Shown in pieces: positions 3,620-19,963 of a stretch of DNA of 64,000 nt. The notes under the pieces were generated by a model, which saw only the letters and a list, made by a program, of their open reading frames with translations, was not told the origin of the DNA and made no database searches. The translations under genes were made by a program, and so were the position numbers. Position 1 is the stretch's first letter; each line of letters starts with the position of its first letter. Origin of the DNA: an uncultured virus (IMG/VR IMGVR_UViG_3300005673_000046) (Duplodnaviria > Heunggongvirae > Uroviricota > Caudoviricetes); the IMG/VR virus record IMGVR_UViG_3300005673_000046. One strand, given 5' to 3'.

Positions 3620-6600
3620 TCACTGCTCCTCCAGCTCGTACCCCTCGGCGCGCGCGCGCCGGCGCTCGACCTCTTGCCAGCGCCGGTCGATCTTGCGCAT
3701 CGCCTTGTCGATGGCGTCCTGCTCGGCCTCCCAGCGGTCATCCTCGGACAAGCCGCTGCGCTCCAGGCCGATGATGGTCCGCCGCAGCTGGGCTTCGATT
3801 TCCCGCAGCTCGGCGTTGATGCCCTGCATGAACAGGTATTCCTGCGTCTCCGGGGCGTAGCTGCCCAGCTTGACGCCGATGGCGCTGAAGAAGGCCTGCG
3901 CCAGCGATGCCTTCTCCTGGCCCAGCGGGCCGGGCTCGATGCGGCCGCGCCAGGCGTTCAGCAGGTTCTCGGTGCTGTAGGTGCCCGGCAGGCCTGGGAA
4001 GTTGGGCATCAGGCCCTTCCACAGGTGTTCGGCGCTGGCGCCCAGCTTCTCGCCGAGCTCGTCGGTGCGCAGCGTGATGTCGCGCCCGGTGAAGCCGGCG
4101 GTGTTGAGCATGAACTCGAAGAACAGCACGGCCGGGCCGCCCGGGATCAGCGGCGGCGGGATCGGGACGGCGGCGTTGCCTGTGCCCGTGTCCACGATGT
4201 CGCCCAGCGCCACCCAGCGCCGCACGTCCAGGAAGACGGGGTTGCCGTTGGCGTCGTTCCAGGGCATGCGCACCAGCTTCGGGGTCAGGAAGCCCCAGAT
4301 GCGCCCGGCCTTCTCGTCGGCCAGCCAGGCGCGTTCGCGCTCCTCGTCGCCGTCGTCGCCCAGCATCATGTAGGCCAGCGTGTTCAGCGACCCAGCGACC
4401 AGGCCGTACTTCATGAGCTTGTGCGGCTTGTCGACCGCGGTCTTCAGCATCATCGGCACCGCCCGGTAGGTGAAGGAGAAGAACGGCCAGACGGTGCGCC
4501 GCATCGCGTTGACCCACGGCGCGGAGATTTCGTAGTTGAGGAAAGAGTCGCGCGCGAACTTGCCGGCGTCGTGGTCACTGATGCCGTCCTCGCGCGCCTT
4601 GACGAAGGCGGCCAGGCGGAACACCACATCCTCGGCGCCGTACAGCTTGATGAGCTTGCGCGGCACCCAGGCCGCCGCGCGACCGACTGGCGCATCCTTC
4701 GCGGCCGCCAGCGCCTGGCGATACTCCCGGTGGCGCAGCAGGTCCATGACCTGGGCCGCGGTGATGAGCGATTGGCCGCCGGCGTCGCGCTCAATCTCGC
4801 GCCGCAGCTCCTCGAGCAGCGGCTTGTAAAGCTCCTCGCGGATTTCGACCTCGTTGAACATGCCGGCGTCGCCGCCGTTGTCCTCGAAGTCCTCCACCAG
4901 CTTCTTCATCTCCGGGTCGGAGCGCGCGGTGGCCATCGCCCTGAGCGCCAGGTACAGGTGCCGGCCCTGAATGTCGTGCATGTCCGCGAACAGCCAGTTG
5001 GCCATCACGTTGTTCATGTGTGTGACCGGACTCAGCGCGGTCTTGCTGATCTTCCAGAGCTTGAGCATGCTCTGCCACAGCCTGGACAGCTGCCCCTGGT
5101 CGGTGAACTGACCGATCTGGCGCAGCTCGTTCCAGACCGGCCCCGGCACCCAGCGGCCGGCCAGGTTGCCGAACGCGGTGACGTTGGTGCCCTTGATCTT
5201 GGTGCTCGGCACCTGGACCCACTCGTTCTTGAGGTAGCTGCGCGCCAGGAAGTAGCTGGCGTCGGCCTGCTTGGCCCCTGCCGGCAGGCGCGACTCGTCG
5301 GCGACTGACTCGTTGCGCGCGACCCAGTCCAGGAAGCGCGCCGTCTCGATGTCGCGCGTCATCTGCATCATGGTGGCCACGGTGGCGAACTTGACCTCCT
5401 GAATCTCGCCCATCTTCGTGCGCTCGGCCAGGGTGAAGTCGCGCCACATGCCGACCTTGTCCTTCTGGTCGAAGAACCGGGCTTCCCACAGGCCATCGTT
5501 GCGCCAGCCCAGCAGGTGTCGCGGGATCGGCACGTCCTCGGGCCAGTAGACGATCTGGCGGATGCGGCCCAGCGGCTGGCCGTTCTCGTCCTCGAACAGC
5601 TGCGGCGTGTCGTCGTCGCGCGGCTTGTCGCGCAGCTCCAGGCGGTGGAACTTCTGGCCCTTGAGCGAGGGATCGTGCGCGCCACTGTTGGTCTTGCGCT
5701 GCCACCAGTCGGCGGTCCCGATCTGCGCCATCGAGGCGTTGTCGCGCATGCCGCGGCCCTTGAGCGTGTCGCCCAGAATGCGGATCGACCGCGACTTGAC
5801 CTCGTTGGCCAGGCGCTCGTCGGCGGTGTGACGCTCGTAGCTGCGGTGCATGTACGCGAAGCGGTTGCGCTCGCGTGACTCGGCGCTGATGAGCCCCAGG
5901 CGCACGGCCTCATCGGACAGGTGCTCGATGTCCTGCTTGAGGCTGGCCAGCACGGCGCGCTGTCCTTCCGGCAGCGCGTCGAACAGGGCGGCCGCGGCGC
6001 GCATGGCCGGCTCGGCCCCGGGGTTCTCGGGGTTGGTGTTCATCCACAGGTACGCGACGCGCGACTGCTCCATCGTCAGGGCGCGGAGCTTGTCCACCGT
6101 CTCGCGGGTCTTGCGCGCGTTGACCCGGATCGCGGTGCGCATCGCGGTCTTGGCCTCGCTGAAGCCATCGCTCACGCCGTAGCGGTCCACCAGCCCGGCC
6201 TTGATGTATTCCCAGTAGTCGCCCATGTGACCGCCCAGGAAGGCGTCGGCCATCCTGCCGGCATGCACTGCCCCGGGGGCGACGACCTTCTTGATGAGCG
6301 CGTCGACCGGCGTGGCGACCAGCTGCACCGGCTTCTCGATGGCGTAGTTCACCAGGTCGAAGGCGCTGAATGGCGTCTCCATGGTCGCGCGCGGCAGCTT
6401 GAGGCTGATCGGGCGCAGCGACGGGGGCGCAGCGGCGGGCGGCGGCTGCTGGCTCAGCGCCGGCAGCTCGCCGCGGTCGACATGCGGCGTCGCCGCCACG
6501 GCGCGCCGGGCGGACATCAGCAGGTCGAAGGTTTCCGCCTCGGTCAGGCTCTCCAGCCAGTCGGCAATGGCCTTGCCGAACTCGCCGAACCGCTGGCGCA

Positions 6601-9600
6601 GGGCGCGCTGCAGGCTGGCCATCACGTAGCGCCAGGCCTTGGGCGCCGGCGCGCCGGCAGCGCGATCGGCCAGCGCCTCCTCCACCGCCAGCGCCTGAAC
6701 GGCCTGCTCGGCATCCTGCCGCGACATCCCCAGGCCGACCCTGGCCTGCACCTGCGCGGCGCCCCACTGGGCATGCCAGGCAGCCGCCTCGGTCGCCAGC
6801 GCAGGGTTGGCGGCGCGCAGCGCCAGCATCATCTGGGTGTAGCGGTCGCCCAGGAACGCGCGCAGGCCGAAGTGCCCGTAGACCTCGTGCCAGAGCACCC
6901 GCAGGCCCTCGTCGATGCTGCCGATCATGTCCGCGACGAGGAACACCCGGCCATCGGGCATCAGCAGCCCGCGCGTGCTGTTCAGCGCGCGCATGCGGCG
7001 CAGGTAGTCCTGGATGTCCGGCGGCAGCTCGGCGGCAGTGCGGGCAACGGCCACGACCGGCATGCCGGGCTCGCGCGACCAGTGCCTGGTGGCCTCGGCC
7101 ACGGCGGCGCCGAGCTTGTCCGGCGCGACGCCGGGGGCGTACTTGCTGCGCCGCTTCGTCGCCGGCTGCCCGGACATCACCGGCAGCCCGCCGCCGGGCT
7201 CGGTGCCGCGCTCGGCGGCCGAGGACATGCTGACCGGGTCGATCACGTCCAGCAGGCGGACGTCGGCCAGCGCCAGCGCGGCCTTGATGTTCTCCAGGGT
7301 GCGCTCGTCGTAGGCGCCGCCCGGGTTCATGACCAGCACCGTGCTGGCGGCCGCCTCGGCCGCCGAGTTGATGAGCCGGTCGTAGCGGTCATCCTGGCGA
7401 AGCCGGCCGGCCACAGCGGGCGCCAGCGGCACCCAGGCGGTGGGCTTGCTCTGGTAGTTCATGAACAGCAGGCCCGGCCGCGAGTCCGCCGCATGCAGCA
7501 CGAGCGCCTTGTCCTTGGCCTCTGCAGGCGAACCGATCACGCTGAGGCCGGTCTGGCGAGACTCGATGGTGCGCTCGACCACGGGCACCGTCGTCGTCGT
7601 GGTCGCGCTCGGCGTGACCACGCCGCTGTAGGTGCCGCCCTCCGGGGTGACGGCCATGAAGCGGGTGATCCCGTCATCGTCGGCCACCGCGGCCAGGCCG
7701 CGCCAGCGCACGGTCGACGGCTCGAAGGAGCGCGCCATCGCCTGGCTCAGGTTCTCGTCGGCACGCGACAGTTCGCTGCGGCCGCTGGGGTGGTTGTGGA
7801 CCGCCCATACCGAGTGCGCATCCTTGATGCGCATGGCCTCCATCAGCACGACGCCGGGATAGACCGAGGTCTGCGACGGAGCGCCCTTGAAAGCGCCGAT
7901 GATGGCCAGCGGGCGGCCGTTCTTGTCGGTGACGAGCGCGTCGAAGTGCTCGACGGCGTAGCGCGTCAGCGCGGAGAGGGCTGCGGCCGCCTCGTTCCAG
8001 TTGGTGACGCGAGCAACCGGCAGATCGTGCCGCCGGACTTCGACGAGCTGGCTGGTGACGTGGTAGATGCCGGGGAAGAACGGGTCTTCCCGCACAGATA
8101 CGGCGTTGGGGGCTGGTACGTTCCGACGCGGGGCGCGGCCGGCCCGAGGTGGATTTCCTCCTCGGGGATCGGGTAGCGGTTGTTCGAACAGGTCATAGTT
8201 GGCCTCGGGCTCGTTGACAGCGTACACCGCGCGCTCCTGCGCGGCAACGGGCGGCACGGGGAAGGCGTCCAGCACCATCTGCAGGCGGTGCAGTGCAACG
8301 AAGGTGCCCCCGTCCTTGTTGAAGACGAAGGACTCCGGCAGCGCGGCCTTCACCTGCTGCGCGTCGACGTGCCGCAGGATCACGCCGAGAATGAGCTTGC
8401 CCTGGCGCGTGGTGTGCCCGATGACCTCCAGCCCGTGCTTGGTCGCCAGCTCCTCGCCGCTGGTCCTGGCCTCGGCCTTGGCGGCCTTCTTCTTCTCGCG
8501 CTCCTGGCGCGCCTGGTCGGCCGGCGGCGCGGCACCGTCGACGCCTTCCTCGGCGCCTTCCTCGGCGCGCGGCTTCGTGCGCTCTGGCACGCCCAGGTTC
8601 TCGACCTCGCCGAACAGCTCGGCAATGTCCTGCGTGCCGGAGAAGTCGTACTCCACCGGCGCCGGCGCGGTCTGGTCCTTGCCCAGCTTGTCGATCACGA
8701 CGATGCGCGTGCGGACGCCGGTGCCGGCGCGCGCGAAAGCCACGCCAGGCAGCCGGATGGTGGCGACGACATGGGCGCCCGGCGCGATGGGCTCGGACTT
8801 CTTGCGCGGGCCGGACTCCTCCAGCTTGTCGATGGCCGAGCCGAGCACGGGTTCGATGCGCCCGGTGTCCTGCATCTTGGCCATGACGTGGGTGTCGTGG
8901 ACCTCGCGGACGTGCCCCACGCGTCCGTTGCGCAGCTCGATGCGGTCGTCGTAGAACAGCTCGGCCTCGCCGTCGGCGATGCGGGCAGTGCCCAGCGCCT
9001 TGATCGGCACGTCCTGGGTGCCGCGCAGGAACTTCTCCAGCCGCGCGTCGGCGGCCGGCCCCTCGGGCAGCAGCGCGACGATGCGGCCGCCCTCGAACAG
9101 GTGCTGGTTGTAGGCCTTGGCCAGGTGCTCGAAGGCCAGCTTGCCGCCACGCTCGAACGGCGGGTTCATGGCGATGCCCCAGGCCTTGTTGGCCGCGGGC
9201 AAGTCCTCGAAGCGGGTTTCGCGGATGTCGCCGTCGAAGACCATGGCCAGGCGCGAGGCCAGCACGGTGCTGGGCTCGACGGCCAGGCGATGGACGGTGT
9301 CGGGCAGCCAGCGCGCGATGGCGCCGTGGCCGGCGCTGGGCTCGATGGCGAGCTCGCCGGGCCGCAAGTCCAGCCACTGGACCATCTTCAGGCCGATGGG
9401 CTCGGGGGTGGGGTAATACTCGTGCCCCTCCTCGCTCTTGGTCTGCTGGTTCTTCTTGCGCTGGGCCCAGTACATGGACATGGCGCGGTCCCAGTCGCTG
9501 AGAATCTGCGCCATCTCGCGGTCGCGCGCCTTGCCCCCGGTGCCCTCGCCCTCGAAGCCTGGTGGCCAGTCGCCCGTGTCCTCGAAGGCCTCGATGTAGG

Positions 9601-12600
9601 CGTCGCGCAGCCCGCGCGCCATCTCGCCCAGGCCCAGGTTCTCGGCCGCCTCCGCGCGCTCGGCGATCTTCTCGGCGAAGGCCGCGCGCTCCCAGGACGT
9701 CTGGGTGTTGAAGTAGCGGAACATCGCGTTGGAGGCCTGCCCCACGCGGTAGATGCGGCCCTCCTGCTGGATCGAGCGCGTCGGGCGCACCGGCAGGCCC
9801 AGGTTGATGAGCACGCGCTGGTGCTTGCCCGTGGTGTCGTGGCCGCTCCAGCCCTTGTCCTTGTCGGCCTGCACGACGAGCAGCGCCGGGCCGGTGTCGT
9901 CGTCGTTGAACCAGTCGACGGCGGCGACCTTCTCCTTGTCGGAGATGCGGCCGTTGAGCACGCGCGCGCGGTCGGCGAAGTGCTCCATCATGGTCTGGAT
10001 GGGGCTCTTGAGCGTGTCCCACGGGTAGGTGACGAGGTCGTCGAACTCCTTGCGCCAGGCCTCCATCGCGGCGTAGGCCCAGGCGTCTTCCTGCGGGTTG
10101 AACTTGACGTTGAACGGGTCCAGGCGCTGGCCCTGGATCAGGTCGTGGAACAGCACGACCTTGCGGCCCAGCTCGAGCTGAGCGCGGATGTACGGCACAG
10201 CCGCCTCGGCCTTGATGGCCTCCAGCATGCGCATGCGGGTCAGGTAGTCGAACTCGCTGCGCAGCTTGCGGCTGGCCTTGTGGATGCCGGCGCGCAGCTT
10301 GTCGAGGCCGCTCTTGGGGTCTTTCTCGTACTCCTCGCGCGCGCCCTCGGTCAGGAACGGCAGCGCCTCGCTGGGGTCGGCTTCCCAGAACCACTGCAGG
10401 CCGCGGTCGATGCGCTGGCCGATGGCCGAATTGGCCGCGATGAACTTGCGGTCGTAGTCGAAATCCGACAGCAGCATCCGGCCGCGCAGCACGCCCTGGT
10501 TCTTGAGCCAGGTGTTGAACTGGCGCTGCATGATGCTGCTGTTGACCGACCACTCCGGCTTGGTCAGCTTGCCGTAGCGCATGCGCCAGCCGAAGTGCTG
10601 GATCATGAAGTTCTGGTAGGCGCTCGGCGCGTTGTAGCCGCGGCCCGGGACGAATCCCTCGTTCCAGTCGAACAGGTAGCCCTGCGCGATGACGGTGGAC
10701 TGCTCCCAGGCGAACGGCGTGGCCGACAGCATCAGCAGCCGCGTGCGGCCGGCGCCCTGCCCCTGCTCGATCAGCGACTCCTGCTGGACCTTCAGCTCGG
10801 CGAAGCGGCGCACCTTGGGCAGCAGCACCTTGTCGATTTCGGCCGCGGCGGCGTGGTTCTGCTTCTCCAGGTGCCCTGCCTGCTCGATGGTCAGCGCCAC
10901 GATTTCCGCGTACAGCTCGGGGTGCGCCATCTGGGTCCGCGTCTCGGCCGACTCCGGGTGCATGGTCAGCGCCCGGATGCGCAGGCCCGACTCGGTGATG
11001 GTGCCCTCCTGACTCTGGCCCATCTCGTGGACCTCGTCGGCGATGACCAGATCCCACCGGCGCTTGAGCAGCGCGTTGTTGTCGCGCAGGTTGGCGTAGG
11101 TCGTGACGACGACGCCCGTGCCGTGGTCCTTGGTGTTCTCCAGCGCCGTGACCTTGAGGCCCAGGTCCGGGCCGGAGCGCAGCCACCCTTCCAGGATGTT
11201 GCGGTCGGGCACGACGACGAGGATGGCGTCCTTGCCCTGCTTGGCGAACCGCTTGGCCACGCCCAGGCCGGTATAGGTCTTGCCGGTGCCGGTGCCGTTG
11301 GTGAACAGCATGCCGTAGCCGGTCGGCTGGGTCAGCCGCGCCTCGGCGTCGATGACATCCTGCTGCTGCTCGGGCAGCAGCATGGGCAGCGAGGCCCGGA
11401 TGTTCTCCTCGTCGTTGAGCTTGACGGGCAGCGCCTCGGCCTGGCGCTGCAGCTGGCGGCGCTTCAGGACATCGGCGGCGGTGCTTCGAGCAGCGTCCTC
11501 AACAGCCCCGTCTGAGATGGGGTCAGATGCCTTTCCTTGATCGCCAGCGAAATCGCCTCGTTGATCGTCAGCACTTCGGGCACCGTCTCGGCCCACTCGG
11601 GGTTGGCCTCCAGCACGCGGCCGATCGCCTGGCGTTCCTGCAGCAGGGGTGCCACTTCCAGGTACGCCAGCGCCACCATCGGATCGCTGACCCGGGCGCG
11701 CAGCGCGTCCCCCAGCTTGTCCGTTTCCGGCGGGAGGTCGCGCACGTCCATCGCCAGCAGGCGCTTCCACAGGGGCGTCTTGGCCAGCGGGGCGATCTGG
11801 CTGCGGAGTCGGTGGGGTGCGTACAGGAGCATCGGGGGCCTCCGTCAAGTCGGCCTTGGACTTCACCTGCGCCACCGTCATCAGGTCGTCGACGCTGCCG
11901 TCGGTGTAGCGGGCGGACATCGAAATGTACGCCCCCTGCAGATGCTTCAGGGTGAGGGATTCGGCGGCCTGGGGACCGATGAACTCGGCGACGTCGGCCA
12001 GCGCCTTCGCCGCGGCCTCGCGGAAGGTCCGCTTGCCCTCGATCACCGCGGCGTCCAGCAGCTCGGCCAGCACCGGCAGCAGCGCCTGCTCCTGCTCGCG
12101 CGTGAGCGCGGGCGGCGCTGGCTTGTCGCCATACTCCGGGCCGGGCTCCTCGGCCTTGGGCGGCCCGAAGATGTCGGACATGCGGCCCAGGGCGGTCAGG
12201 CGCTTCGTGCGCGCCTCGGCCTCGCGCTCCGGCGTCGGCGCGTTCTCGCTGCGGCCCAGCGGGCCTGCGGCGAACTCGCGGGCGTCCGGCCAGGTGGAGT
12301 GCCACCGCGGCGTCTCGCCAGGCTTGCGCACCCAGCGGTCGCCCTCCTTGACGACCTCCACGACCTTCACGGCCCAGCCTCCGGCCTCGGTCGCCGGCTG
12401 GAACTCCAGCACCTCGTCGAATCCAGCGTAGCCCTGCACGATGTTGCCGGGCGTGTAGTAGGCGCGCAGCCTCTCGAACTTGGCTTCGTACTCGGCCTCG
12501 GCCTTGTTGAGCCGGTCCACGCGCGGCCGACGGCCGGGCCCGATGTCGTCGAACCGATCTTGCGGGTCGCGCCTGGCGCGCTGCAACAGCCGCTTGAGCC

Positions 12601-15600
12601 GCTCGTCGATCAGGCGGACCTCGGCGGGCGTCAAGCCGCTGCTCACCAGCGGGCCGCGCACGCGCTGCGCAGCCAGGCGCTGCGCCAGCAGCGTCGCGCC
12701 AGCGTCGGTCGCCTCCTGGATCATGCCCCGCAACCGGCTATCGGCCTCCATGCGGGCGCGATCCGCTGGGCTGACCTTGGGCCCCTTCTTGGCCGGCGCC
12801 GGCGGTGCGACCGAGTCCTCCGGCCCGGACAGCTCGCCGTCCAGCGCGAAGGCCTGCACGGTGCCCGGCGCAAAGCGCGGGTCGTCCAGTGTGTAGGTGG
12901 TCTGCATGGCGCCGCCGCCCACGTTCAGCGACTTGACCGCCGTGACCTTGGTGCGCAGCGGCGGACCGTCGGGCTCGCCGTCCGGGGTGCGTGGCTGCCA
13001 GGTGACGGGGTCGCCACTGGCGAAGCGCGGACCAGCGGCCTCCAGCTCCGACCAGCGCAGCATGCGCGAGCCGCCGACCTCGAAGCGCACGATGGCGCCC
13101 TCGAAGGCCGGCCCGGGGCCGTAGAAGCTTTCGACATACCCGGGCTGCCCGGATGCGAGTTCGCGCACGCGCTGCAGCTTGCCGACGGGGGCGTAGCCGT
13201 CGACCTCGACGCCGTCCTTGAGGTAGCGCGCGACCTGGCGGAAGCCTTCGGGGATGGCCGGCTGCGCGTCGTCCTCCGGGAACGGCTTGCGGCCTTCGAC
13301 CGCGCGCTCGATCCAGTCACCCTGGATGCCCGGCGCGTTCTTCAGGGCCCGCACCGCGGCCAGCAGGCTCTTGCGTAGCTGCTCGCCGAGCCCGTCATCT
13401 GTCGGCCACAGGTCTTTCTGGCTGAGGGCCTGGATGCCGGTGTCTTGCACCTTGCGGCCACCGTCCCACTTCGATTCCTGGGTCTGCCACTGCTGCAGCC
13501 ATTGCGCCGCGGTCATGCCTTCGGGCTTGATCCTGTTGCTCTCCAGGCGATCGGCGCCGATCAGCTGAAACGCGCGGCCATAGTCGCGCAGGGCCGGATA
13601 GGCGGTGTTGAGCCAGTAGTCGCGGATGCGCTGGCGCGCCCCCTGCTGCTGGTCGTCAGCCGGCGCTGGCGTCGCCGCCGGTGGCGCGGCGGGCGGGTCG
13701 TAGGCGCTGATCGAGCCGAACAGGTCATCCGCGCCAGGCGCGGTCAGCGTGAAGTTGTCGCGGTCGGCGTCGGCGCGCGCGCGGTTCTCGCGCTCGGCGC
13801 GCTCGGCGGCCTCGCGGGCCAGGCGCTCGCGCTCGGCCCTGGCGTCGGCCTCCAGGCGGGCTTGCTCGTCCTCGGCGCGGCGGCGCAGCTCGGCCTCGTC
13901 GTAGGGTCGAAGCAGCGGGTCGGCTTCGCCTTGCTGCTCGTCGTCCAGCCACCAGTCGCGCCCAACCGCTGACGGGCGAGCGGCATCGAGAAGCTGCTGC
14001 GCGAAGTCCCGTTCCTCGGGCGTGTCCAGTCGAACGCTGCTGCGCGACCCCGCGACCTCGCCGTCGTAGCTCAGAACCTCGCCGTCAAGCCGAACGGCGT
14101 TCATCTTGCCCAAGACGGCGGTGATGAGCTGCCGCCTCGTGGCGGTTCCGATCTGGAGGCCGAGACGCGAATCGAACGCGCCGGCGGTGATCGGCTCGTC
14201 CAGGATGCTGCGCGCACCAGGCGCCGGCGCGTTCACGTCGCCATGCCGCTGCCATGGCCTGGTCAGGTCGATGTGTGCCTTGCGGTAGGCGTCGGCCAGG
14301 CGCTCGACGGGCTGGATCATGAACAGGGTCCGCATGCGCTCGACGCTGTTCTTCGGCGACAGCCGCAGGTTCGCGCCGATCAGGCGAACCTGCTCCTCGG
14401 TGAGCGCCGCGATGGAGCGGTCCACGGCATCGAGGAACCTGGCGCGGGCAACGTCCATGCCCGACTCGCGCGCCTCGCGGTCCTTGGCCCACTGCAGCGA
14501 CCGCTGGAGCTTGGCGAGCTGGCCCTTGCGCGACTTCAGCTGCTCGGCGGTGTAGGCATCCAGCAGCGCCTTGGCTTCCTTGCTGTGGCGCGCCCAGTGG
14601 TCGGGCCCCACGTAGGACTTCGGCGTCTGCGGCTTCAGGCGCTGCTCGGCCTCATGGCGGGCTCGCAGGTGCAGGATGCGGATGGCCCGCTCGATTTCCT
14701 CGACCGTGCGGCCGCCATCCGGCGGGCGCGGCGCAGGCGGGGCGGCCGCAGCCTGGTCGCCATCGGCCGGCAGGCCCGCCACGTACTGCTTGATCGCCCG
14801 GTTCATCTCCCCGGTGCCGCCGATGAACTCGCGCACCGAGGCGTCTTCGGGGATCGCACCGTCCTCGATGGCCTTGGCCACCGCGGCGCGCATCACGCGC
14901 CGGTAGTGCTCGCCGCCGACGATCTGGATGTCGCGCGGCATGGCGGCCAGCAGGCCCACCGGCAGCTCGCCGCTGGCGATCGAGGCCACCAGCTCGTCGG
15001 CGCGCTCGGCCGTCATCAGCTGGTCGTAGGGCTCGATCACCTGGTCGGGCCGCACGAAGCCGTGCTTGGCCGACAGGATGAACAGCCGCGGCGGGCTCTG
15101 CGCGCCCAGCGCCTTGCGGTAGGTGTTCCACAGCGGGCCGGTGTAGAAATCCTTGGCCGGCGTCGGCGCGCCGAGCTTCATCGCCCCGCATGGCATGAAC
15201 AGCCCGCACTCGTCGCGCAGGACATCGGGCGCACGCTCGCGCCCGTTGACGACCCGCGAGGCTAGGTCTTCGAGCCGCCGGACGGCTTCTTGACGACCAT
15301 CCCTCGGCGCAACCGCTCCAGGCGCAACAGGCGCTCCCTGTCCGCCGGGTCCATCTTGGCCAGCTTCAGCATCGCGTCGCGCTGCTTCTTGCTCTTGGGC
15401 GGCTTCCTTGGCCAGTTCATCGGCAATCTCCTGCTCGCTGAATCCCAGCGCGCGCATCTGGTCGGCCAGGGACTGCGGCGGCGCAGGCGCATCCCAGGCA
15501 ACGTCGTCGTCATCGAGCGCGTCGAGTTCAGCCGGCGTGATCCCGGCCTCCTCCATGATGGCACGGCGCTCGGCCTCGGCCTCGGCGGCCGCTTCCTCGT

Positions 15601-18600
15601 CCAGAGCCGGGTACAGCAGCTCCGGGTGGTTGTCCGCGAGCCACTGCTCGCGTTCCTGCGGCGTCATGGCCTCCCAGGCCTGGCGCTCTGCGTCCTCGTC
15701 GGCCTGATCCTCGGCCTGCTGTTCCGCGCGGGTCTTGGGCTCGTCGCGGTTGAGCGCACTCGTCACCAGTGCGCGTGCTGCCTCGTCGGCGGCCTTGTAG
15801 TCGGCCTCGTAGGAGCCGGGATCGAGGTAGCCCTCCTCCTCCATCCACAGCGCGAGCTCGTTGGTGTCGGCGATGCCGCCGTCGCGGAACAGGCCGCCGA
15901 TGCCGGAGACGGGCGGGTTGAACCAGCGCGCCACCGGGCGGCCGTTGCGGTCGCGGCCCAGCTCCTTCTTGAAGCTCAGATCGTGCAGCAGGCTCGGGTC
16001 GATGCCGCCGAGCTGCCGGCTGATTTCGGCGAGCATCCTGGAGCCCCAGACGGTGGCCGGATGCGAGCGCACGCCGGCAACGCGGCGCACGGCCTTGGGC
16101 GTCTCCTGCGGTTCATCCCAGCGCAGGTCGTCGACCGTGCGCTGTCCGATGGCCGCCTCGATCTTGGCGGCGATCTGCTCGGGCGTGTCGTCCTTCGCCT
16201 CGGTGTTGATCGAGCGCAGGAAAGCCTCGCCCGCGGGGGTGAGCTGCCGCTTGATCGGGTGGACGAGGTCGGCCTTGCGCAGCGCCTCCAGCACGCTCAA
16301 GTCCGCGCTGGCCGTCAAGGCGCCGTTCATCATGTCGACCAGCGTGTTCAGCACCGCGCCGCCCTTCCACGGCTCCTTGCGCTGCACGCGCGTCGGCGGC
16401 TTGACGCCGGTGACTTCCTCGACCCACTTGGCGATGGCGCGCGCCTGCTGGCGCTGGCGCTCGCTCGCCAGGCTGCCGGTGGCCTCCAGGATGTTGAACG
16501 CGCTGCGCTGCAGGCTGCGCCCGGCAGCGCGCAGCGCGTCCTCGCGGGTGGGGAAGGTGTCGACCACGCTGGGCGAGCTGCTGCCGCCGCTCATCGAGCC
16601 GCCGGTGGTGTTGTAGTGGCTGCCCGGCGCCCAGGTGCCGTCTTCCAGCTCGACCAGGCTGATGTCCGCCTTGACGCCCTTGGCCTGGCCCTTGGGGGCC
16701 GGCATGACCAGCGTCGTCATGTCCGGGGTGCTGTCCGGGACGAAGACGCCGTGGTCGTTCGGCGCGTGGCCGCCCTTCGTGCGGATGCGGGGCCTGCCTT
16801 CGGGCGTCGGAGCGAGGGGTGCGGCGCCGGCCGGCGTTCCTGGCCCGCCAGGGACGCTACCCGATGAAGCCTCCTCGACAGGCCCCGGCGGCGCCGCGGG
16901 CACATTGTCGCGCACCGGCTGGCCGAGGATGCCCCCGAGGCTTTCTAGGGCCTTCCGGCGCTTCTCGGCGGCGGCGCTGGGGGCCTGCGGCGGCGCCGCG
17001 GGAGGCGGCGCGGCCGGCTCCGGTGTGGCCTGCTCGACCTGGCTGGCCAGGTCTTCGCGGTTGGCGGCGAACTTGGCCGCCAGAGCCTCGGCATGGCGGT
17101 CGCCGAACTCGTTGCCGTACTCCGCGAGGATGCCCTCGATGTCGCGCAGCGCGCTGCGCGCCGCGCCGCGCATCGTCTCGATGTCCTCGGGCTTGGCCGG
17201 CTTGCCGGTTTCGGGATTGGTGCCGGTGCGCAGCGCGTCCAGCAGCATGTTGGCTGCGGCCAGGTCGGTCTGGATGCGGCCGACCACCTGCTGGTGCGTG
17301 TCGCGCACGGCCTGCGTCAGGTAGACGGGGTCGTCCTCCAGGCCCTCGAACATCGAGTTGCGGCCGGCCGCGGCCAGCTCGTCGAACTGCGGACGCGGGT
17401 AGGTCTTCTCGTAGTCCGGCGTGTCGCTCAGTGCAGCGTCCTGAAGTCCAGCTCCAGGCTGGGCGCTTCCGGCTCCCGGTCTGCCAGTATCGCCATCGCC
17501 GGGTGCAGGCGCTCCGGGAACATCGCCAGCGGGATTGACTCCCCCGGGTACAGCAGCATCCGGTCCCAGATTTCCGCCGCCTCGGCCAGCGTTATCGAGC
17601 ACTCCAGGACCGGCTCCACCAGGAACCGCGGGAGCAGCTGCCACGTCAGACTGGTCATCGAATCCCTCCTTGAAGGCTGGCGAGAACGGCGCCTTGTGGT
17701 TGCCGGTCTTGATCCAGTCCTTGAACATCGGCATGTCCATGCCGCTCAGGTAGCCCAGGCCCCGCCAGTCGGGCGTGTAGTTGGCGCGGTAGGCGGCCTC
17801 GGCCTCTTGCGGGCTGGCGAAGCCCAGCATGACCTTGTGCTCGTCGAACTTCCCGGTGCGCGGGTCGCGCTGGTCGATCACGAAGACCGGGCCGTCGTAG
17901 TCGGGCGGCGTGCCGGGCTTGATGAAGGTGTCGACGTGGTCGCCGTCCTTGCCTTCGGTGCCGCGGATGTAGCCGTAGTGCGACTGGACCGTGTTCTCCC
18001 AAGGCTTCCCGTCGGGGTCCACGCCGCGGCGCACCGAGCCCTGCGGGTTCTCGATGCTGATGTCCAGGCCGCCCAGGCGGATGTGGCCCTTCTTGTAGTT
18101 GCCGGCCTCCTTCTGCGGGTCGGTCGGCTCCGGGAGGTCGTTGGTCGGGCTCGTGGCGGCGCCGTGCGCCGCGTCGTCGACCGGGGTGCCCAGTAGCGCG
18201 CCGGCGTCCATCGGCGCGTCCGGGTTCGCTGGCGGCGATGCGGCGGCGGCCGGCGGTGCGGCGGCGGTGCGCGGCTGCACCGGAATCTGCGGCGTGATGC
18301 CGGGCCGCTGGCCGAAGTCTGGCGGCAGGGGCGGGAGGTCGCCCATCGTGGGCTCGCGGCGCTCGGGCGCCGGCGCGCCGCCGCGGCCGCCGGTGCGCAG
18401 GCGGCCGATGGCCGCGCCGCCGGCCTGCATGACGCCGGTGGCGATGAAGGTCTGGACCGCGGTGTCGCGCATCGACTCCAGGAAGCCAGCGACCGTGATG
18501 TCCTCGTCCAGGCCGAGCTTGGTCCCGTCCACCAGGTACTGGCCGGCGCTGGTGATCTGCTCGCCGATGCCCTCACCGACCTGGCCGCGCACGACCTGGC

Positions 18601-19963
18601 CGACGCCGGCCGAGAACAGCCCGCGCCTCTCCAGCGCGACGACCGCGCGCTCGGCCCACTGCGGCAGCTCCTCCAGCGTCTTCTTCGCGGCCTGGCCGCG
18701 CAGCGCGTTCATGGCGGCCGGGATGAGGCCGTACCGCTCGCCGATGTACTCCAGAGCGCCCATGATGGCCGCCCGGCCGGCGGCGTGTGACGGCGCCAGG
18801 CCCTCGATGCGGCCTTGGATGAACTCCTGGCCGAAGACCTGGGTGCCCATGATCCCCATGGCCACGCGGGCGCCGGCCATCGGGTTCTTGGTCAGCACCG
18901 TCGTCGCCGCGCCGGCGCCCATGGCCGGCAGCATCTGGCCGACCGAGTTCATGGCGCCCACGCCCATTCGCTCGAGGTAGGCCGCCGGGGAAACCCCGAG
19001 CACGCCCATCTCCTCGGCGCGCTGGCGGATGGTCAGCAGCTCGTTGGCGGCATCGACCTTGACCTGCGCGCGCTTGCCCTCCTTCTCGTAGAGCTTGGCG
19101 CCCTCCTCGTCGCCGAGGGCGCGCAGCGCCATGGCCATGCCGCCCTGGACGGACTGCTTCAGGCCCTGGCCGGCGGCGAACAGGCCGCGCTGCGCGATGC
19201 CGGAGTCCTTGAGCTGCGCGCCCTCGGCCTTGGCCGCTGCCTCCTCCTCCAGGGAAAGCGGCGAGTCGATCGCCTTGGCCTGGCCGGGCAGCACGGTCAG
19301 CCCGCCCTGCAGCGCCTGGTTGCCGGCTACGCCGGCCGCCACGTCGCCGCGCATGCCGCCCTCGATCAGCCGCTCTGCGCGCGCCTCCATCGGGGCGTCC
19401 GGCGTCTGCACGCCGGTCGTCTCCTGCAGCTTGGCGTCGGCATCGAGCTGGCGCACCGCCTCGGTCATCGCCGTGCGCATCCAGGCCGGCAGGTCTTCGC
19501 GGGCGAGCTGGGCCCGGCGCACCTGCGGCGGCATGGCCCCGAGCTGGGCCTTCAGCGCCGCGAAAGCCTCCTTCGACAGCGGCGACGGGCGGCGCAGGCC
19601 GGGCTTGACCGGGTTCTGGTCGGAGTGATCTGCGAGCGTGGCGTCCGGCGCTGGCGGCGAGGCGATCTGCTGCGCCGCGGTGGTCATCTCGTCGGCGATG
19701 TTCCCGCCTGGCGGCTCCTGGCTGGGGCTCGTCACCCGGTCGACGACCTGGCCGAGCGCCTGCGCGGTTCGCTCGCCCATGGACAGCTTGCGCGGCGGCG
19801 GCGCGGGCGGCGGGTTCTTGTCCCAGCCGTAGATCGCATCCCACTCCTGCGGCGAAAGCTGGCCACGGCGCTGCTTGCCCCCCTTCTGGGGGGCGGGGGG
19901 TTCGGGGTGCGGCTTGGTTTCGACCGCGTCGTAGATGCTGTCCCAGTCGACCTGGTTGCTCAT
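3620..19963 (-). CDS. giant polyvalent (DarB-like) protein, 5447 aa: PPase-like, DUF6884-like, SF2 helicase, N6-adenine MTase, JAB/RadC and zincin metallopeptidase domains
   Basis: AGNYKKGH..ENPQGS..HYGYI..DGDHVD; CGAMK..YTGP..ILSAKHG; GTGTGKT, DEVH, QQEGRIYRVGQ; EPSAGHG and NPPF; HNHPSG..SRAD; HEVYGHFGL..EEALA. Confidence 0.92.
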   Translation of the reverse strand: MSNQVDWDSIYDAVETKPHPEPPAPQKGGKQRRGQLSPQEWDAIYGWDKNPPPAPPPRKLSMGERTAQALGQVVDRVTSPSQEPPGGNIADEMTTAAQQIASPPAPDATLADHSDQNPVKPGLRRPSPLSKEAFAALKAQLGAMPPQVRRAQLAREDLPAWMRTAMTEAVRQLDADAKLQETTGVQTPDAPMEARAERLIEGGMRGDVAAGVAGNQALQGGLTVLPGQAKAIDSPLSLEEEAAAKAEGAQLKDSGIAQRGLFAAGQGLKQSVQGGMAMALRALGDEEGAKLYEKEGKRAQVKVDAANELLTIRQRAEEMGVLGVSPAAYLERMGVGAMNSVGQMLPAMGAGAATTVLTKNPMAGARVAMGIMGTQVFGQEFIQGRIEGLAPSHAAGRAAIMGALEYIGERYGLIPAAMNALRGQAAKKTLEELPQWAERAVVALERRGLFSAGVGQVVRGQVGEGIGEQITSAGQYLVDGTKLGLDEDITVAGFLESMRDTAVQTFIATGVMQAGGAAIGRLRTGGRGGAPAPERREPTMGDLPPLPPDFGQRPGITPQIPVQPRTAAAPPAAAASPPANPDAPMDAGALLGTPVDDAAHGAATSPTNDLPEPTDPQKEAGNYKKGHIRLGGLDISIENPQGSVRRGVDPDGKPWENTVQSHYGYIRGTEGKDGDHVDTFIKPGTPPDYDGPVFVIDQRDPRTGKFDEHKVMLGFASPQEAEAAYRANYTPDWRGLGYLSGMDMPMFKDWIKTGNHKAPFSPAFKEGFDDQSDVAAAPAVPGGAGPGVLDNAGRGGGNLGPDAAVPGGVNPAGDVPGAPAPGDGDTGRPGAGSAQPGAGLQDAALSDTPDYEKTYPRPQFDELAAAGRNSMFEGLEDDPVYLTQAVRDTHQQVVGRIQTDLAAANMLLDALRTGTNPETGKPAKPEDIETMRGAARSALRDIEGILAEYGNEFGDRHAEALAAKFAANREDLASQVEQATPEPAAPPPAAPPQAPSAAAEKRRKALESLGGILGQPVRDNVPAAPPGPVEEASSGSVPGGPGTPAGAAPLAPTPEGRPRIRTKGGHAPNDHGVFVPDSTPDMTTLVMPAPKGQAKGVKADISLVELEDGTWAPGSHYNTTGGSMSGGSSSPSVVDTFPTREDALRAAGRSLQRSAFNILEATGSLASERQRQQARAIAKWVEEVTGVKPPTRVQRKEPWKGGAVLNTLVDMMNGALTASADLSVLEALRKADLVHPIKRQLTPAGEAFLRSINTEAKDDTPEQIAAKIEAAIGQRTVDDLRWDEPQETPKAVRRVAGVRSHPATVWGSRMLAEISRQLGGIDPSLLHDLSFKKELGRDRNGRPVARWFNPPVSGIGGLFRDGGIADTNELALWMEEEGYLDPGSYEADYKAADEAARALVTSALNRDEPKTRAEQQAEDQADEDAERQAWEAMTPQEREQWLADNHPELLYPALDEEAAAEAEAERRAIMEEAGITPAELDALDDDDVAWDAPAPPQSLADQMRALGFSEQEIADELAKEAAQEQEAARRDAEAGQDGPGGQGAPVAPGAVAPRDGRQEAVRRLEDLASRVVNGRERAPDVLRDECGLFMPCGAMKLGAPTPAKDFYTGPLWNTYRKALGAQSPPRLFILSAKHGFVRPDQVIEPYDQLMTAERADELVASIASGELPVGLLAAMPRDIQIVGGEHYRRVMRAAVAKAIEDGAIPEDASVREFIGGTGEMNRAIKQYVAGLPADGDQAAAAPPAPRPPDGGRTVEEIERAIRILHLRARHEAEQRLKPQTPKSYVGPDHWARHSKEAKALLDAYTAEQLKSRKGQLAKLQRSLQWAKDREARESGMDVARARFLDAVDRSIAALTEEQVRLIGANLRLSPKNSVERMRTLFMIQPVERLADAYRKAHIDLTRPWQRHGDVNAPAPGARSILDEPITAGAFDSRLGLQIGTATRRQLITAVLGKMNAVRLDGEVLSYDGEVAGSRSSVRLDTPEERDFAQQLLDAARPSAVGRDWWLDDEQQGEADPLLRPYDEAELRRRAEDEQARLEADARAERERLAREAAERAERENRARADADRDNFTLTAPGADDLFGSISAYDPPAAPPAATPAPADDQQQGARQRIRDYWLNTAYPALRDYGRAFQLIGADRLESNRIKPEGMTAAQWLQQWQTQESKWDGGRKVQDTGIQALSQKDLWPTDDGLGEQLRKSLLAAVRALKNAPGIQGDWIERAVEGRKPFPEDDAQPAIPEGFRQVARYLKDGVEVDGYAPVGKLQRVRELASGQPGYVESFYGPGPAFEGAIVRFEVGGSRMLRWSELEAAGPRFASGDPVTWQPRTPDGEPDGPPLRTKVTAVKSLNVGGGAMQTTYTLDDPRFAPGTVQAFALDGELSGPEDSVAPPAPAKKGPKVSPADRARMEADSRLRGMIQEATDAGATLLAQRLAAQRVRGPLVSSGLTPAEVRLIDERLKRLLQRARRDPQDRFDDIGPGRRPRVDRLNKAEAEYEAKFERLRAYYTPGNIVQGYAGFDEVLEFQPATEAGGWAVKVVEVVKEGDRWVRKPGETPRWHSTWPDAREFAAGPLGRSENAPTPEREAEARTKRLTALGRMSDIFGPPKAEEPGPEYGDKPAPPALTREQEQALLPVLAELLDAAVIEGKRTFREAAAKALADVAEFIGPQAAESLTLKHLQGAYISMSARYTDGSVDDLMTVAQVKSKADLTEAPDAPVRTPPTPQPDRPAGQDAPVEAPAGDGRARPPAGNGQAGGRAARPGQRSDGGAGVPGSGTPAAGTPGDRPRAGGQPRVGRDGARSADDQRGDFAGDQGKASDPISDGAVEDAARSTAADVLKRRQLQRQAEALPVKLNDEENIRASLPMLLPEQQQDVIDAEARLTQPTGYGMLFTNGTGTGKTYTGLGVAKRFAKQGKDAILVVVPDRNILEGWLRSGPDLGLKVTALENTKDHGTGVVVTTYANLRDNNALLKRRWDLVIADEVHEMGQSQEGTITESGLRIRALTMHPESAETRTQMAHPELYAEIVALTIEQAGHLEKQNHAAAAEIDKVLLPKVRRFAELKVQQESLIEQGQGAGRTRLLMLSATPFAWEQSTVIAQGYLFDWNEGFVPGRGYNAPSAYQNFMIQHFGWRMRYGKLTKPEWSVNSSIMQRQFNTWLKNQGVLRGRMLLSDFDYDRKFIAANSAIGQRIDRGLQWFWEADPSEALPFLTEGAREEYEKDPKSGLDKLRAGIHKASRKLRSEFDYLTRMRMLEAIKAEAAVPYIRAQLELGRKVVLFHDLIQGQRLDPFNVKFNPQEDAWAYAAMEAWRKEFDDLVTYPWDTLKSPIQTMMEHFADRARVLNGRISDKEKVAAVDWFNDDDTGPALLVVQADKDKGWSGHDTTGKHQRVLINLGLPVRPTRSIQQEGRIYRVGQASNAMFRYFNTQTSWERAAFAEKIAERAEAAENLGLGEMARGLRDAYIEAFEDTGDWPPGFEGEGTGGKARDREMAQILSDWDRAMSMYWAQRKKNQQTKSEEGHEYYPTPEPIGLKMVQWLDLRPGELAIEPSAGHGAIARWLPDTVHRLAVEPSTVLASRLAMVFDGDIRETRFEDLPAANKAWGIAMNPPFERGGKLAFEHLAKAYNQHLFEGGRIVALLPEGPAADARLEKFLRGTQDVPIKALGTARIADGEAELFYDDRIELRNGRVGHVREVHDTHVMAKMQDTGRIEPVLGSAIDKLEESGPRKKSEPIAPGAHVVATIRLPGVAFARAGTGVRTRIVVIDKLGKDQTAPAPVEYDFSGTQDIAELFGEVENLGVPERTKPRAEEGAEEGVDGAAPPADQARQEREKKKAAKAEARTSGEELATKHGLEVIGHTTRQGKLILGVILRHVDAQQVKAALPESFVFNKDGGTFVALHRLQMVLDAFPVPPVAAQERAVYAVNEPEANYDLFEQPLPDPRGGNPPRAGRAPRRNVPAPNAVSVREDPFFPGIYHVTSQLVEVRRHDLPVARVTNWNEAAAALSALTRYAVEHFDALVTDKNGRPLAIIGAFKGAPSQTSVYPGVVLMEAMRIKDAHSVWAVHNHPSGRSELSRADENLSQAMARSFEPSTVRWRGLAAVADDDGITRFMAVTPEGGTYSGVVTPSATTTTTVPVVERTIESRQTGLSVIGSPAEAKDKALVLHAADSRPGLLFMNYQSKPTAWVPLAPAVAGRLRQDDRYDRLINSAAEAAASTVLVMNPGGAYDERTLENIKAALALADVRLLDVIDPVSMSSAAERGTEPGGGLPVMSGQPATKRRSKYAPGVAPDKLGAAVAEATRHWSREPGMPVVAVARTAAELPPDIQDYLRRMRALNSTRGLLMPDGRVFLVADMIGSIDEGLRVLWHEVYGHFGLRAFLGDRYTQMMLALRAANPALATEAAAWHAQWGAAQVQARVGLGMSRQDAEQAVQALAVEEALADRAAGAPAPKAWRYVMASLQRALRQRFGEFGKAIADWLESLTEAETFDLLMSARRAVAATPHVDRGELPALSQQPPPAAAPPSLRPISLKLPRATMETPFSAFDLVNYAIEKPVQLVATPVDALIKKVVAPGAVHAGRMADAFLGGHMGDYWEYIKAGLVDRYGVSDGFSEAKTAMRTAIRVNARKTRETVDKLRALTMEQSRVAYLWMNTNPENPGAEPAMRAAAALFDALPEGQRAVLASLKQDIEHLSDEAVRLGLISAESRERNRFAYMHRSYERHTADERLANEVKSRSIRILGDTLKGRGMRDNASMAQIGTADWWQRKTNSGAHDPSLKGQKFHRLELRDKPRDDDTPQLFEDENGQPLGRIRQIVYWPEDVPIPRHLLGWRNDGLWEARFFDQKDKVGMWRDFTLAERTKMGEIQEVKFATVATMMQMTRDIETARFLDWVARNESVADESRLPAGAKQADASYFLARSYLKNEWVQVPSTKIKGTNVTAFGNLAGRWVPGPVWNELRQIGQFTDQGQLSRLWQSMLKLWKISKTALSPVTHMNNVMANWLFADMHDIQGRHLYLALRAMATARSDPEMKKLVEDFEDNGGDAGMFNEVEIREELYKPLLEELRREIERDAGGQSLITAAQVMDLLRHREYRQALAAAKDAPVGRAAAWVPRKLIKLYGAEDVVFRLAAFVKAREDGISDHDAGKFARDSFLNYEISAPWVNAMRRTVWPFFSFTYRAVPMMLKTAVDKPHKLMKYGLVAGSLNTLAYMMLGDDGDEERERAWLADEKAGRIWGFLTPKLVRMPWNDANGNPVFLDVRRWVALGDIVDTGTGNAAVPIPPPLIPGGPAVLFFEFMLNTAGFTGRDITLRTDELGEKLGASAEHLWKGLMPNFPGLPGTYSTENLLNAWRGRIEPGPLGQEKASLAQAFFSAIGVKLGSYAPETQEYLFMQGINAELREIEAQLRRTIIGLERSGLSEDDRWEAEQDAIDKAMRKIDRRWQEVERRRARAEGYELEEQ
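7966..8196 (-). CDS. possible nested +1-frame ORF (76 aa)
   Basis: GAGG 6 nt before ATG; MTCSNNRYPIPEEEIHLG...; the distal half looks like frame shadow. Confidence 0.35.
   Translation of the reverse strand: MTCSNNRYPIPEEEIHLGPAAPRVGTYQPPTPYLCGKTRSSPASTTSPASSSKSGGTICRLLASPTGTRRPQPSPR
11464..11832 (-). CDS. nested +1-frame gene inside the giant gene (122 aa)
   Basis: GGAGG 6 nt before ATG; Leu/Glu/Ala-rich helical composition; host frame is a low-complexity linker here. Confidence 0.75.
   Translation of the reverse strand: MLLYAPHRLRSQIAPLAKTPLWKRLLAMDVRDLPPETDKLGDALRARVSDPMVALAYLEVAPLLQERQAIGRVLEANPEWAETVPEVLTINEAISLAIKERHLTPSQTGLLRTLLEAPPPMS
15262..15420 (-). CDS. nested +1-frame gene (52 aa, basic)
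   Basis: AGGAG 7 nt before ATG; MNWPRKPPKSKKQRDAMLKLAKMDPADRERLLRLERLRRGMVVKK. Confidence 0.6.
   Translation of the reverse strand: MNWPRKPPKSKKQRDAMLKLAKMDPADRERLLRLERLRRGMVVKKPSGGSKT
17428..17658 (-). CDS. nested +1-frame gene (76 aa)
   Basis: AGGAGG 6 nt before ATG; MTSLTWQLLPRFLVEPVLECSITLAEAAEIWDRMLLYP. Confidence 0.72.
   Translation of the reverse strand: MTSLTWQLLPRFLVEPVLECSITLAEAAEIWDRMLLYPGESIPLAMFPERLHPAMAILADREPEAPSLELDFRTLH

Follow-up and report, generated by a model that had tools for sequence, protein, structure and literature searches.

How much can be hidden inside one phage gene? The question is raised by a 64,000-nucleotide (nt) stretch of DNA from an uncultured virus of the Caudoviricetes (IMG/VR record IMGVR_UViG_3300005673_000046), referred to here at its full length as the window. 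Its minus strand carries a giant gene, a single open reading frame (ORF) in which Pfam finds four domain types: InPase, DUF6884, a Strawberry-notch-type helicase (ResIII/SNF2/Helicase_C_4) and a RadC-like JAB. Four short ORFs, designated s1 to s4, lie within it in the +1 frame. We put at roughly 85% the probability that at least three of them, s1, s2 and s3, are real overlapping small genes situated in the linkers of the giant gene. Comparison of distant phages shows the +1 frame of the small genes to be better conserved than the host frame that it overlaps.

Four start sites in the +1 frame

The giant gene and the embedded ORFs, with their Shine-Dalgarno (SD) sequences, are as follows; aa, amino acids.

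3620..19963, minus strand: giant host gene, 5447 codons (from the ORF list, translation and Pfam)
17428..17658, minus strand: s1, +1 frame, 76 aa, ATG at 17658 and TGA stop at 17428-17430, in the linker just after InPase (aa 769-846 in giant-protein numbering)
17665..17670, minus strand: SD of s1, AGGAGG, 6 nt before the ATG
15262..15420, minus strand: s2, +1 frame, 52 aa, very basic, ATG at 15420, in the linker before DUF6884 (aa 1515-1568)
15428..15432, minus strand: SD of s2, AGGAG, 7 nt before the ATG
11464..11832, minus strand: s3, +1 frame, 122 aa, ATG at 11832, overlapping the linker directly upstream of the helicase N-lobe (aa 2711-2834)
11839..11843, minus strand: SD of s3, GGAGG, 6 nt before the ATG
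7966..8196, minus strand: s4, +1 ORF of 76 aa, ATG at 8196 (aa 3923-3999)
8203-8206, minus strand: SD of s4, GAGG, 6 nt before the ATG

All four ORFs lie wholly inside the giant ORF. A first-pass annotation of the window had placed their ATGs in the +1 frame behind SD sequences at 6-7 nt, and both coordinates and sequence confirm this. How common are such starts? The giant ORF contains 51 ATG codons in the +1 frame, and only five have an SD 4-10 nt upstream, all four reported starts among them. The fifth, at 19839 on the minus strand, has AGGAG 4 nt upstream and opens a 35-codon ORF in which no coding-like composition signal was flagged.

Base composition marks the same places. Over the whole giant ORF, the GC content at codon positions 1, 2 and 3 (GC1, GC2 and GC3) is 0.72, 0.49 and 0.915. 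In 120-nt windows, host GC3 drops to 0.40-0.45 while host position 1 rises to 0.9-0.98 at four places only, all on the minus strand: 17683-17414, 15493-15224, 11863-11444 and, more weakly, 8263-8084. The host-frame translation across the four stretches is rich in G, A, P, R and D. Read in the +1 frame, s1 has GC1, GC2 and GC3 of 0.68, 0.43 and 0.91, s3 has 0.72, 0.45 and 0.88, and the GC3 of s2 is 0.96. We also scanned for maximal segments in which the +1 frame is more coding-like than the host frame, with 100 synonymous shuffles of the host gene as the null. The segments found were 17649..17443 for s1 (55.3 nats), 15399..15265 for s2 (38.9), 11835..11524 for s3 (92.0) and 8184..8095 for s4 (23.4), against a mean of 7.2 and a maximum of 14.3 nats in the shuffles; the top +2 segment scored 9.5. 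The four +1 segments begin 0-7 codons from the ATGs, and those of s1-s3 end 0-20 codons short of the stop codons. The proposed switch, in which the host frame becomes a G/A/P/R/D linker and the +1 frame comes to resemble ordinary coding sequence, is thus borne out by both the GC3 windows and the segment scan, for s4 in part.

A faint fifth place was seen at 14023-13874 on the minus strand, where host position-1 GC is 0.88-0.90 and GC3 0.75-0.78; it fell under the threshold in the likelihood scans.

s3, a conserved ORF upstream of the helicase

A tblastn search with s3 reached Pseudomonas phage Skulduggery and Klebsiella phage ZX1, in each case within the annotated giant coding sequence (CDS) but shifted from its frame by one base. 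Eleven more loci came from a profile scan of IMG/VR, and in all 13 phage or viral loci the ORF that holds s3 in its +1 frame has 2303 to >4000 codons. Of 10 loci from bacterial genomes and metagenome-assembled genomes (MAGs), 9 have s3 embedded in +1 within a giant ORF. The exception is a Burkholderiales MAG contig (L015, 4800-18600) whose giant gene is in pieces, ORFs of 150-830 codons scattered across many frames, owing either to prophage decay or to assembly indels; it was excluded from the comparison as uninformative. A hidden Markov model (HMM) of s3 identifies 26 loci besides the window, with s3 embedded in a long ORF at 25 of them and the helicase N-lobe following within a few codons of the s3 stop.

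Does the association hold when the helicase is the starting point? The helicase N-lobe, used as query against the phage collection, retrieved eight records representing six distinct phages, and an s3-family +1 ORF lies immediately upstream in 6/6: Skulduggery, ZX1, Parlo (s3 HMM E-value 1e-52), Ruegeria 45A6 (6e-35), Vibrio 1.232.O (4e-30) and Vibrio D274 (5e-31). Both Vibrio phages have a GC content of 46%. Stops interrupt the +1 frame of 1.232.O 101 times over 2245 codons, and the longest stretch they leave open is the 135-codon s3 ORF. Since these phages keep s3 open, GC-richness is no explanation for the open frame. In the corresponding GenBank records (NC_070827/MF042361, MW722080, KT820175, NC_048758, MG592596 and OZ196038), the giant CDS is the sole annotated feature over the s3 homologue.

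The start is conserved along with the frame. An ATG stands at the onset of homology in 13 of the 13 s3 homologues examined, with an SD-like motif 6-10 nt upstream in most. The ORF is kept open, at a constant 120-135 aa, down to ~30% identity and in genomes of 46%-70% GC. Identity in the +1 frame exceeds that in the host frame in 15/15 pairs, and the differences concentrate at +1 third positions. In five close pairs, changes silent in +1 and replacing in the host frame number 33, 33, 31, 19 and 19, against 9, 11, 11, 4 and 2 of the reverse class, the possible changes being 3408 and 4014, respectively. These counts indicate that the +1 frame of s3 is under purifying selection.

The s3 family comprises 118 clusters in a large protein database, nearly all of 120-136 aa and unnamed, whose proteins begin at profile residue 1. 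Among 8000 scored candidates there was no longer, in-frame fused form, which is weak evidence. AlphaFold2, given a 36-sequence alignment, predicts an eight-helix globular domain with a predicted local distance difference test score (pLDDT) of 93.7 and a predicted template modelling score (pTM) of 0.86. No convincing structural relative of this model emerged from Foldseek searches of the PDB (best E 1.9) or from BFVD (best E 1.9), and VIA-align against 48,161 chains gave a best Z of 4.5 and none of 5 or above. A tblastn search of plasmids with s3 gave no match. Taken together, the conserved start, the selection pattern and the predicted fold point to s3 being a real and widespread gene.

Is s3 attached to the giant gene or to the helicase? 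At two loci the ORF with the helicase is reduced in length, with the modules upstream of it present as genes of their own. The ORF at L007:5400-12305 starts only ~180 codons before s3, and that at L021:7396-11184 has 1262 codons; at both, s3 is still embedded in +1. The linker that overlaps s3 and the helicase therefore behave as one unit.

L009-L013 have a second small basic +1 ORF, of 56-61 aa (e.g. L010:5779-5961), directly before the s3 homologue; across these five loci its identity is 69-98%. The TAA that closes it is immediately followed by the s3 ATG, so that two embedded genes stand in a row, and the ORF matches no Pfam or PHROG family.

Some leads for s3 were set aside. An ESM Atlas search gave a best feature score of 0.90, the number of features in common being small, with some 'anti-sigma factor' names at 0.87-0.89; these values are within the stated noise and were not used. 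A match of the L008 homologue to an ATPase was weak (E 0.017) and unconvincing. BLAST clustering by transitive links joined 40 's3-like' stop-to-stop ORFs; this cluster was left out of the counts, which rest on the HMM, as read-through sequence before the true starts can link ORFs.

s1 and s2

Relatives of the giant gene were examined at the 80 best InPase-bearing loci of 552 encoding a relative of the query, InPase being the selection criterion. In the closest of these, L025 (InPase 84% identical) and L014, an s1 homologue lies in +1 right after InPase. Both homologues have an SD, that of L025 being AAGGAG before a GTG start, while L014 has an ATG start. s1 aligns with a larger family of ~65-aa ORFs. 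An HMM of this family, run against the 25,865 six-frame ORFs of the 80 loci, detected members at 34, without exception embedded in the giant ORF in +1 and never elsewhere; 32 start with ATG and 2 with GTG, and a GAGGTG motif recurs before the start in most. Against 1.84 billion representatives, the s1 profile matched 158 proteins at E <= 0.001, mostly of 59-75 aa and aligned full-length from residue 1. AlphaFold2 predicts a three-helix core (residues 11-60, pLDDT ~80-90; 74 overall), for which the best hit of a PDB fold search had an E of 6.1. A tblastn search of the phage collection with s1 found no match. Confinement of the family to one frame, with its starts preserved, indicates that s1 is a real gene.

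For s2 there are fewer relatives. In L025, a +1 ORF at the matching place is 67% identical to s2 over 45 codons, compared with 41% for the host frame, and includes an identical run of 19 residues; the upstream context (...GCAGGAGATTGCCG-ATG) is also identical. A weaker relative, at 35%, is present in L003. The large protein database holds three s2-like proteins, all short. At least two natural variants in s2 are found in a metagenome contig among the variants listed; both are silent in +1 and one alters a host residue (n = 2). A tblastn search of the phage collection with s2 gave no match, and 212 pattern matches in viral contigs included none that was confirmed. L025 and L003 retain s2 although Pfam detects no DUF6884 in them; s2 is therefore not tied to that domain. 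Among the window, L025 and L014, +1 identity exceeds host identity for s1 and s2 in 5/5 pairs, weaker evidence than that for s3. We regard s2 as probably a real gene on the strength of the L025 copy and its context.

s4, a doubtful ORF

What of the fourth site? The coding-like signal of s4 covers 30 of its 76 codons (8184..8095). Past codon ~30 the ORF runs across the conserved N-terminus of the RadC/JAB module, and its translation there is S/P/T-rich, as of an out-of-frame reading. In L106-L109, whose JAB region is 50% identical, a 70-aa +1 ORF occupies the same place, with a +1 score of 6.5 that is inside the null (maximum 8.6) and a host frame conserved on both sides. Neither of its +1 ATGs has a well-spaced SD; the inner one has GGAG ~13 nt upstream. 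The closest contigs, L014 and L025, yielded no JAB region of the giant gene, and tblastn with s4 against the 80 InPase loci found nothing at E <= 0.01. The first-pass annotation had proposed four hidden genes missed by gene callers. Three of them, s1, s2 and s3, behave as such, while s4, with a signal of 30 codons and no support from relatives, is doubtful as a gene. It is probably not a gene, or one of at most ~30 codons.

Alternative explanations

How would the small proteins be made? We propose that s1-s3 would be produced by internal initiation on the late mRNA of the giant gene and hence would appear together with the giant protein. Internal initiation is preferred to frameshifting because the ATG and SD are conserved and because only 0-4 codons separate the s3 start from a preceding +1 stop. 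Under the latter model, programmed +1/-2 frameshifting of ribosomes at internal SD-like sequences would yield truncated giant proteins ending in the s1, s2 or s3 peptide. Internal SD sequences are known stimulators of frameshifting, as in prfB and dnaX, and each +1 ORF ends in a stop, so that a nested set of shorter products would result. However, the +1 stops just upstream of the s3 ATG, found in the window, L002 and L006, and the abutting TAA and ATG of L009-L013 leave no room for a shift site, although slippery sequences were not searched systematically. The position of the ATG at the exact onset of homology in 13/13 s3 homologues, and of database proteins at profile residue 1, also argues against a shift from the host frame, and we consider programmed frameshifting very unlikely. 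Could the +1 ORFs instead be fossils, remnants of small genes swallowed when the giant ORF was fused, which retain the old codon pattern and are no longer translated or useful? The codon signature alone fits a living gene and a recent relic equally, the giant gene can absorb independent genes (the HNH endonucleases of L005 and L008, described below), and for s4 a fossil or simple linker composition is the best fit. A relic would not be expected to hold s3 open at constant length, with its ATG and SD, to ~30% identity and across 46%-70% GC, nor to accumulate substitutions that preferentially spare the s3 +1 protein, nor to keep s1 open with an ATG or GTG in 34/34 matches. For s1-s3, we give the fossil reading hardly any weight.

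A further possibility is that chance alone would produce long alternative ORFs and odd codons in a gene of 70% GC whose linkers are of low complexity. The window does contain 153 six-frame ORFs of >=150 aa, stretches of as many as 1101 codons lack a stop in the +2 frame of the giant gene, and Ala/Pro/Gly linkers with T- or A-ending codons automatically give common +1 codons. Composition may fully account for s4 and for some of the 83 regions flagged in relatives. For s1-s3 we reject it as extremely improbable: no shuffle exceeded 14.3 nats, against 38.9-92.0 for the three ORFs; s3 homologues are the longest open +1 stretch in phages of 46% GC; and s3 combines a confident AlphaFold2 fold with purifying selection on its +1 frame.

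Several observations nevertheless weigh against our preferred reading, that s1-s3 are translated genes linked to the modules beside them. Most s3 loci were retrieved with s3 as the query, and the helicase-first search is the sole unbiased route. s1 went undetected in 46 of the 80 InPase-bearing giant genes, and it lies after InPase in three loci and 80-340 aa before it in the others; its link with InPase is therefore loose. In addition, InPase had been the criterion by which these 80 loci were selected. The excess of +1 over host identity is modest at the available divergence for s1 (0.46-0.51 versus 0.36-0.46) and modest also for s2, and in both comparisons the G/A/P-rich host frame inflates chance identity. 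A tblastn search of the 80 InPase loci with s2 gave nothing at E <= 0.01, missing the L025 copy, which was found by a codon scan and alignment. No known family or fold was recovered for s1, s2 or s3 (Pfam and PHROGs for s1-s4, fold searches for s1 and s3). Finally, s3 was rejected as a homologue of Ulx, a small helper encoded by phage P1: hhalign of the s3 profile against Ulx gave a probability of 0.2% and an E of 0.3.

Origin of the linkers

Which came first, the linkers or the small genes? The first-pass annotation had the small genes overprinted on the giant gene. The reverse is probably the case, and on codon usage and constraint the linkers of the giant gene were probably overprinted on older small genes, because the small genes have the codon pattern typical of the genome and the stronger constraint, while the host linker is a poorly conserved, fast-evolving, low-complexity sequence. 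We envisage that the giant ORF would read through pre-existing or inserted small genes, so that third positions of the small gene become first positions of the read-through frame and give rise to disordered G/A/P/R/D linkers.

Why should embedded genes always be in +1? In the 80 giant genes we flagged 83 coding-like alternative-frame regions, 83/83 in +1 and none in +2. Stop codons begin with T, and in a GC3-rich gene a frame that uses third positions as first positions is almost free of stops. This explains the restriction to +1. In bacterial same-strand overlaps, a bias towards phase 1 that stems from composition has reportedly been described.

Genes of recognisable origin occupy the same kind of slot in two relatives. 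L005:3973-4626 and L008:4591-5040, both on the plus strand, are complete HNH endonuclease genes (phrog_3377, E 3e-52 and 1e-50) in the +1 frame of giant genes; their mutual identity is 40%, and neither interrupts the giant ORF that contains it. Pfam gave no HNH match for either embedded ORF. Their presence in the +1 slot means that a giant ORF can read through an independent gene. These genes resemble free-standing HNH homing endonucleases, which normally lie between genes or in introns or inteins, whereas here the host ORF reads through them in another frame. Unlike them, s1, s2 and s3 are not endonucleases.

Comparison with known systems and possible function

Genes embedded in other genes are familiar in phages. 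Rz1 inside Rz, in phage lambda and many others, is the standard example of an embedded +1 phage gene, and phiX174 offers another case of embedding. The Rz/Rz1 arrangement is also described for Bcep22-like phages in parts of the paper on phage JC1 (PMC9144972). In both Rz/Rz1 and the giant gene, a small same-strand gene with its own start lies wholly within a larger one in +1 and is of a kind often missed by gene callers. Containment, a conserved start and selection on the +1 frame are found for s1-s3, the evidence of selection being weaker for s1 and s2. Rz1 is expressed late from the transcript of the larger gene, and the same would apply to s1-s3. The present arrangement differs in that several unrelated small genes share one 16-kb gene and are confined to disordered inter-domain linkers rather than lying over a folded region. 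It also differs in that the products are soluble-looking helical proteins devoid of a lipoprotein signal and in that the embedded frame is more constrained than the host.

The host gene itself is of a described type. Large polyvalent proteins of phages and conjugative elements join many unrelated enzymatic domains in one polypeptide, according to sections of Iyer et al. 2017 (PMC5512222). The giant gene shares with them its InPase, helicase/methylase and RadC domains and its place in a virion module, and its product is probably packaged and ejected. It differs from the published description, which in those sections includes no second coding layer in the linkers; the words 'overlapping' and 'frameshift' are absent from the text of PMC5512222.

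Why would a polyvalent gene carry small genes? In the P1 Dar system, packaging or function of a virion protein of the DarB methylase/helicase type depends on small helpers expressed with it (Ulx, DdrA, DdrB, Hdf and DarA), and ulx, a gene of 146 aa, adjoins darB. According to the JC1 paper (PMC9144972), the P1 Dar helpers have no identified homologues in Bcep22-like phages that carry giant DarB-like genes. By analogy, the small proteins may be module-linked helpers, either chaperones for assembly or packaging or temporary inhibitors, with s3 serving the DarB-like helicase/methylase and s1 the InPase region. We put this forward tentatively. For s3 it is the best guess because of co-inheritance with the helicase module and the P1 precedent; with no family or fold recognised to go by, any assignment of function is a guess. 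The arrangement is not identical to that of P1, in that s3 is upstream of the helicase and inside the giant gene, whereas ulx is downstream and separate. The first-pass annotation had the small genes travelling with their modules, which fits s3 with the helicase and s1 beside InPase; s2, kept where Pfam detects no DUF6884, does not follow its module. As for the further idea of cognate inhibitors, chaperones or regulators, what these data show is the co-inheritance of s3 with the helicase.

A broader proposal is that giant polyvalent virion genes are 'operons inside a gene', whose linkers arise by read-through of small genes for the missing module-specific helpers, and that this is general, with many unrelated families, always in +1, throughout the phages that have such genes. 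Under this proposal, the DarB-like helicase/methylase might depend on s3 for its folding, silencing or packaging, a role comparable to that of Ulx and DdrA for DarB in P1. We see it as conceivable and well short of established.

The literature covered by our search, which does not extend to subscription journals, yielded no description of genes embedded in giant polyvalent or DarB-like genes. What is new here is the set of several conserved, unannotated families in polyvalent giant genes, their confinement to linkers, their linkage to modules and the read-through of independent genes. Why does this matter? Giant DarB-like or polyvalent genes make up ~1/5 of the ~60-kb genomes of the phages that carry them and are annotated as a single gene. 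With a well-folded, conserved protein hidden before the helicase module, the gene content of these phages is under-counted, and some phages of this kind are under consideration for therapy. The embedded genes provide specific candidates for the accessory factors on which, by the genetics of P1, DarB-type anti-restriction depends. They also suggest a rule for very long ORFs in GC-rich phages, growth by reading through neighbouring or inserted genes in a stop-poor frame, which predicts further places to look for hidden genes.

The giant gene and its setting

The window has a GC content of ~70%. Its minus strand carries a structural module with the large terminase, portal, major head protein, internal virion protein and tail fibres; the giant gene is the last of this module and adjoins an integrase at 2175-3164. 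The window is that of a temperate phage whose structural module closes with a 5447-aa polyvalent virion (ejection) protein. The domains of this protein lie as follows.

aa 617-752 of the giant protein: InPase domain (Pfam)
aa 1589-1700: DUF6884 domain (Pfam)
from ~aa 2863: ResIII/helicase (Pfam)
from ~aa 3987: RadC-like JAB (Pfam)
9467..11461, minus strand: DarB-like helicase module with both RecA lobes, host frame, 3' of s3 (Pfam ResIII/SNF2/Helicase_C_4)

The embedded ORFs were suggested to sit at domain boundaries: s1 follows InPase, s2 precedes DUF6884, s3 precedes the helicase and s4 overlaps the start of RadC/JAB. We assign the giant protein to the phage virion proteins known as 'large polyvalent proteins' because several unrelated conflict-related domains share one polypeptide in a phage context. 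Pfam matched no LPD domain in the giant protein of the window at E <= 0.01; it found LPD38 or LPD39 in the relatives L043, L058, L085 and L002. GenBank names for relatives of the gene are 'DarB-like antirestriction' or 'PLxRFG protein'. In an 18-sequence alignment, the host-frame helicase segment has a mean column identity of 55%.

DNA near-identical to window positions 7900-17800 is present in bioreactor-sludge and sediment metagenome runs. One sediment contig differs from the window by a 12-nt in-frame deletion at 8538 and scattered substitutions.

Further +1 ORFs recur among the relatives. In L043-L060, another conserved +1 family, present at 12 loci, occupies giant-gene nt ~11,300-12,450 (e.g. 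L043:17460-17828) and has no family match; at L043, the one locus checked, the ORF ends just before the LPD39 domain of the host. Short +1 ORFs in L014, L026/L027, L035, L039, L069 and L084 have in common the motif 'LT(P/S/K)SE(I/V)E(S/L)L(R/L)' and may form a further embedded family, which BLAST divides into two clusters of 4 and 3 members.

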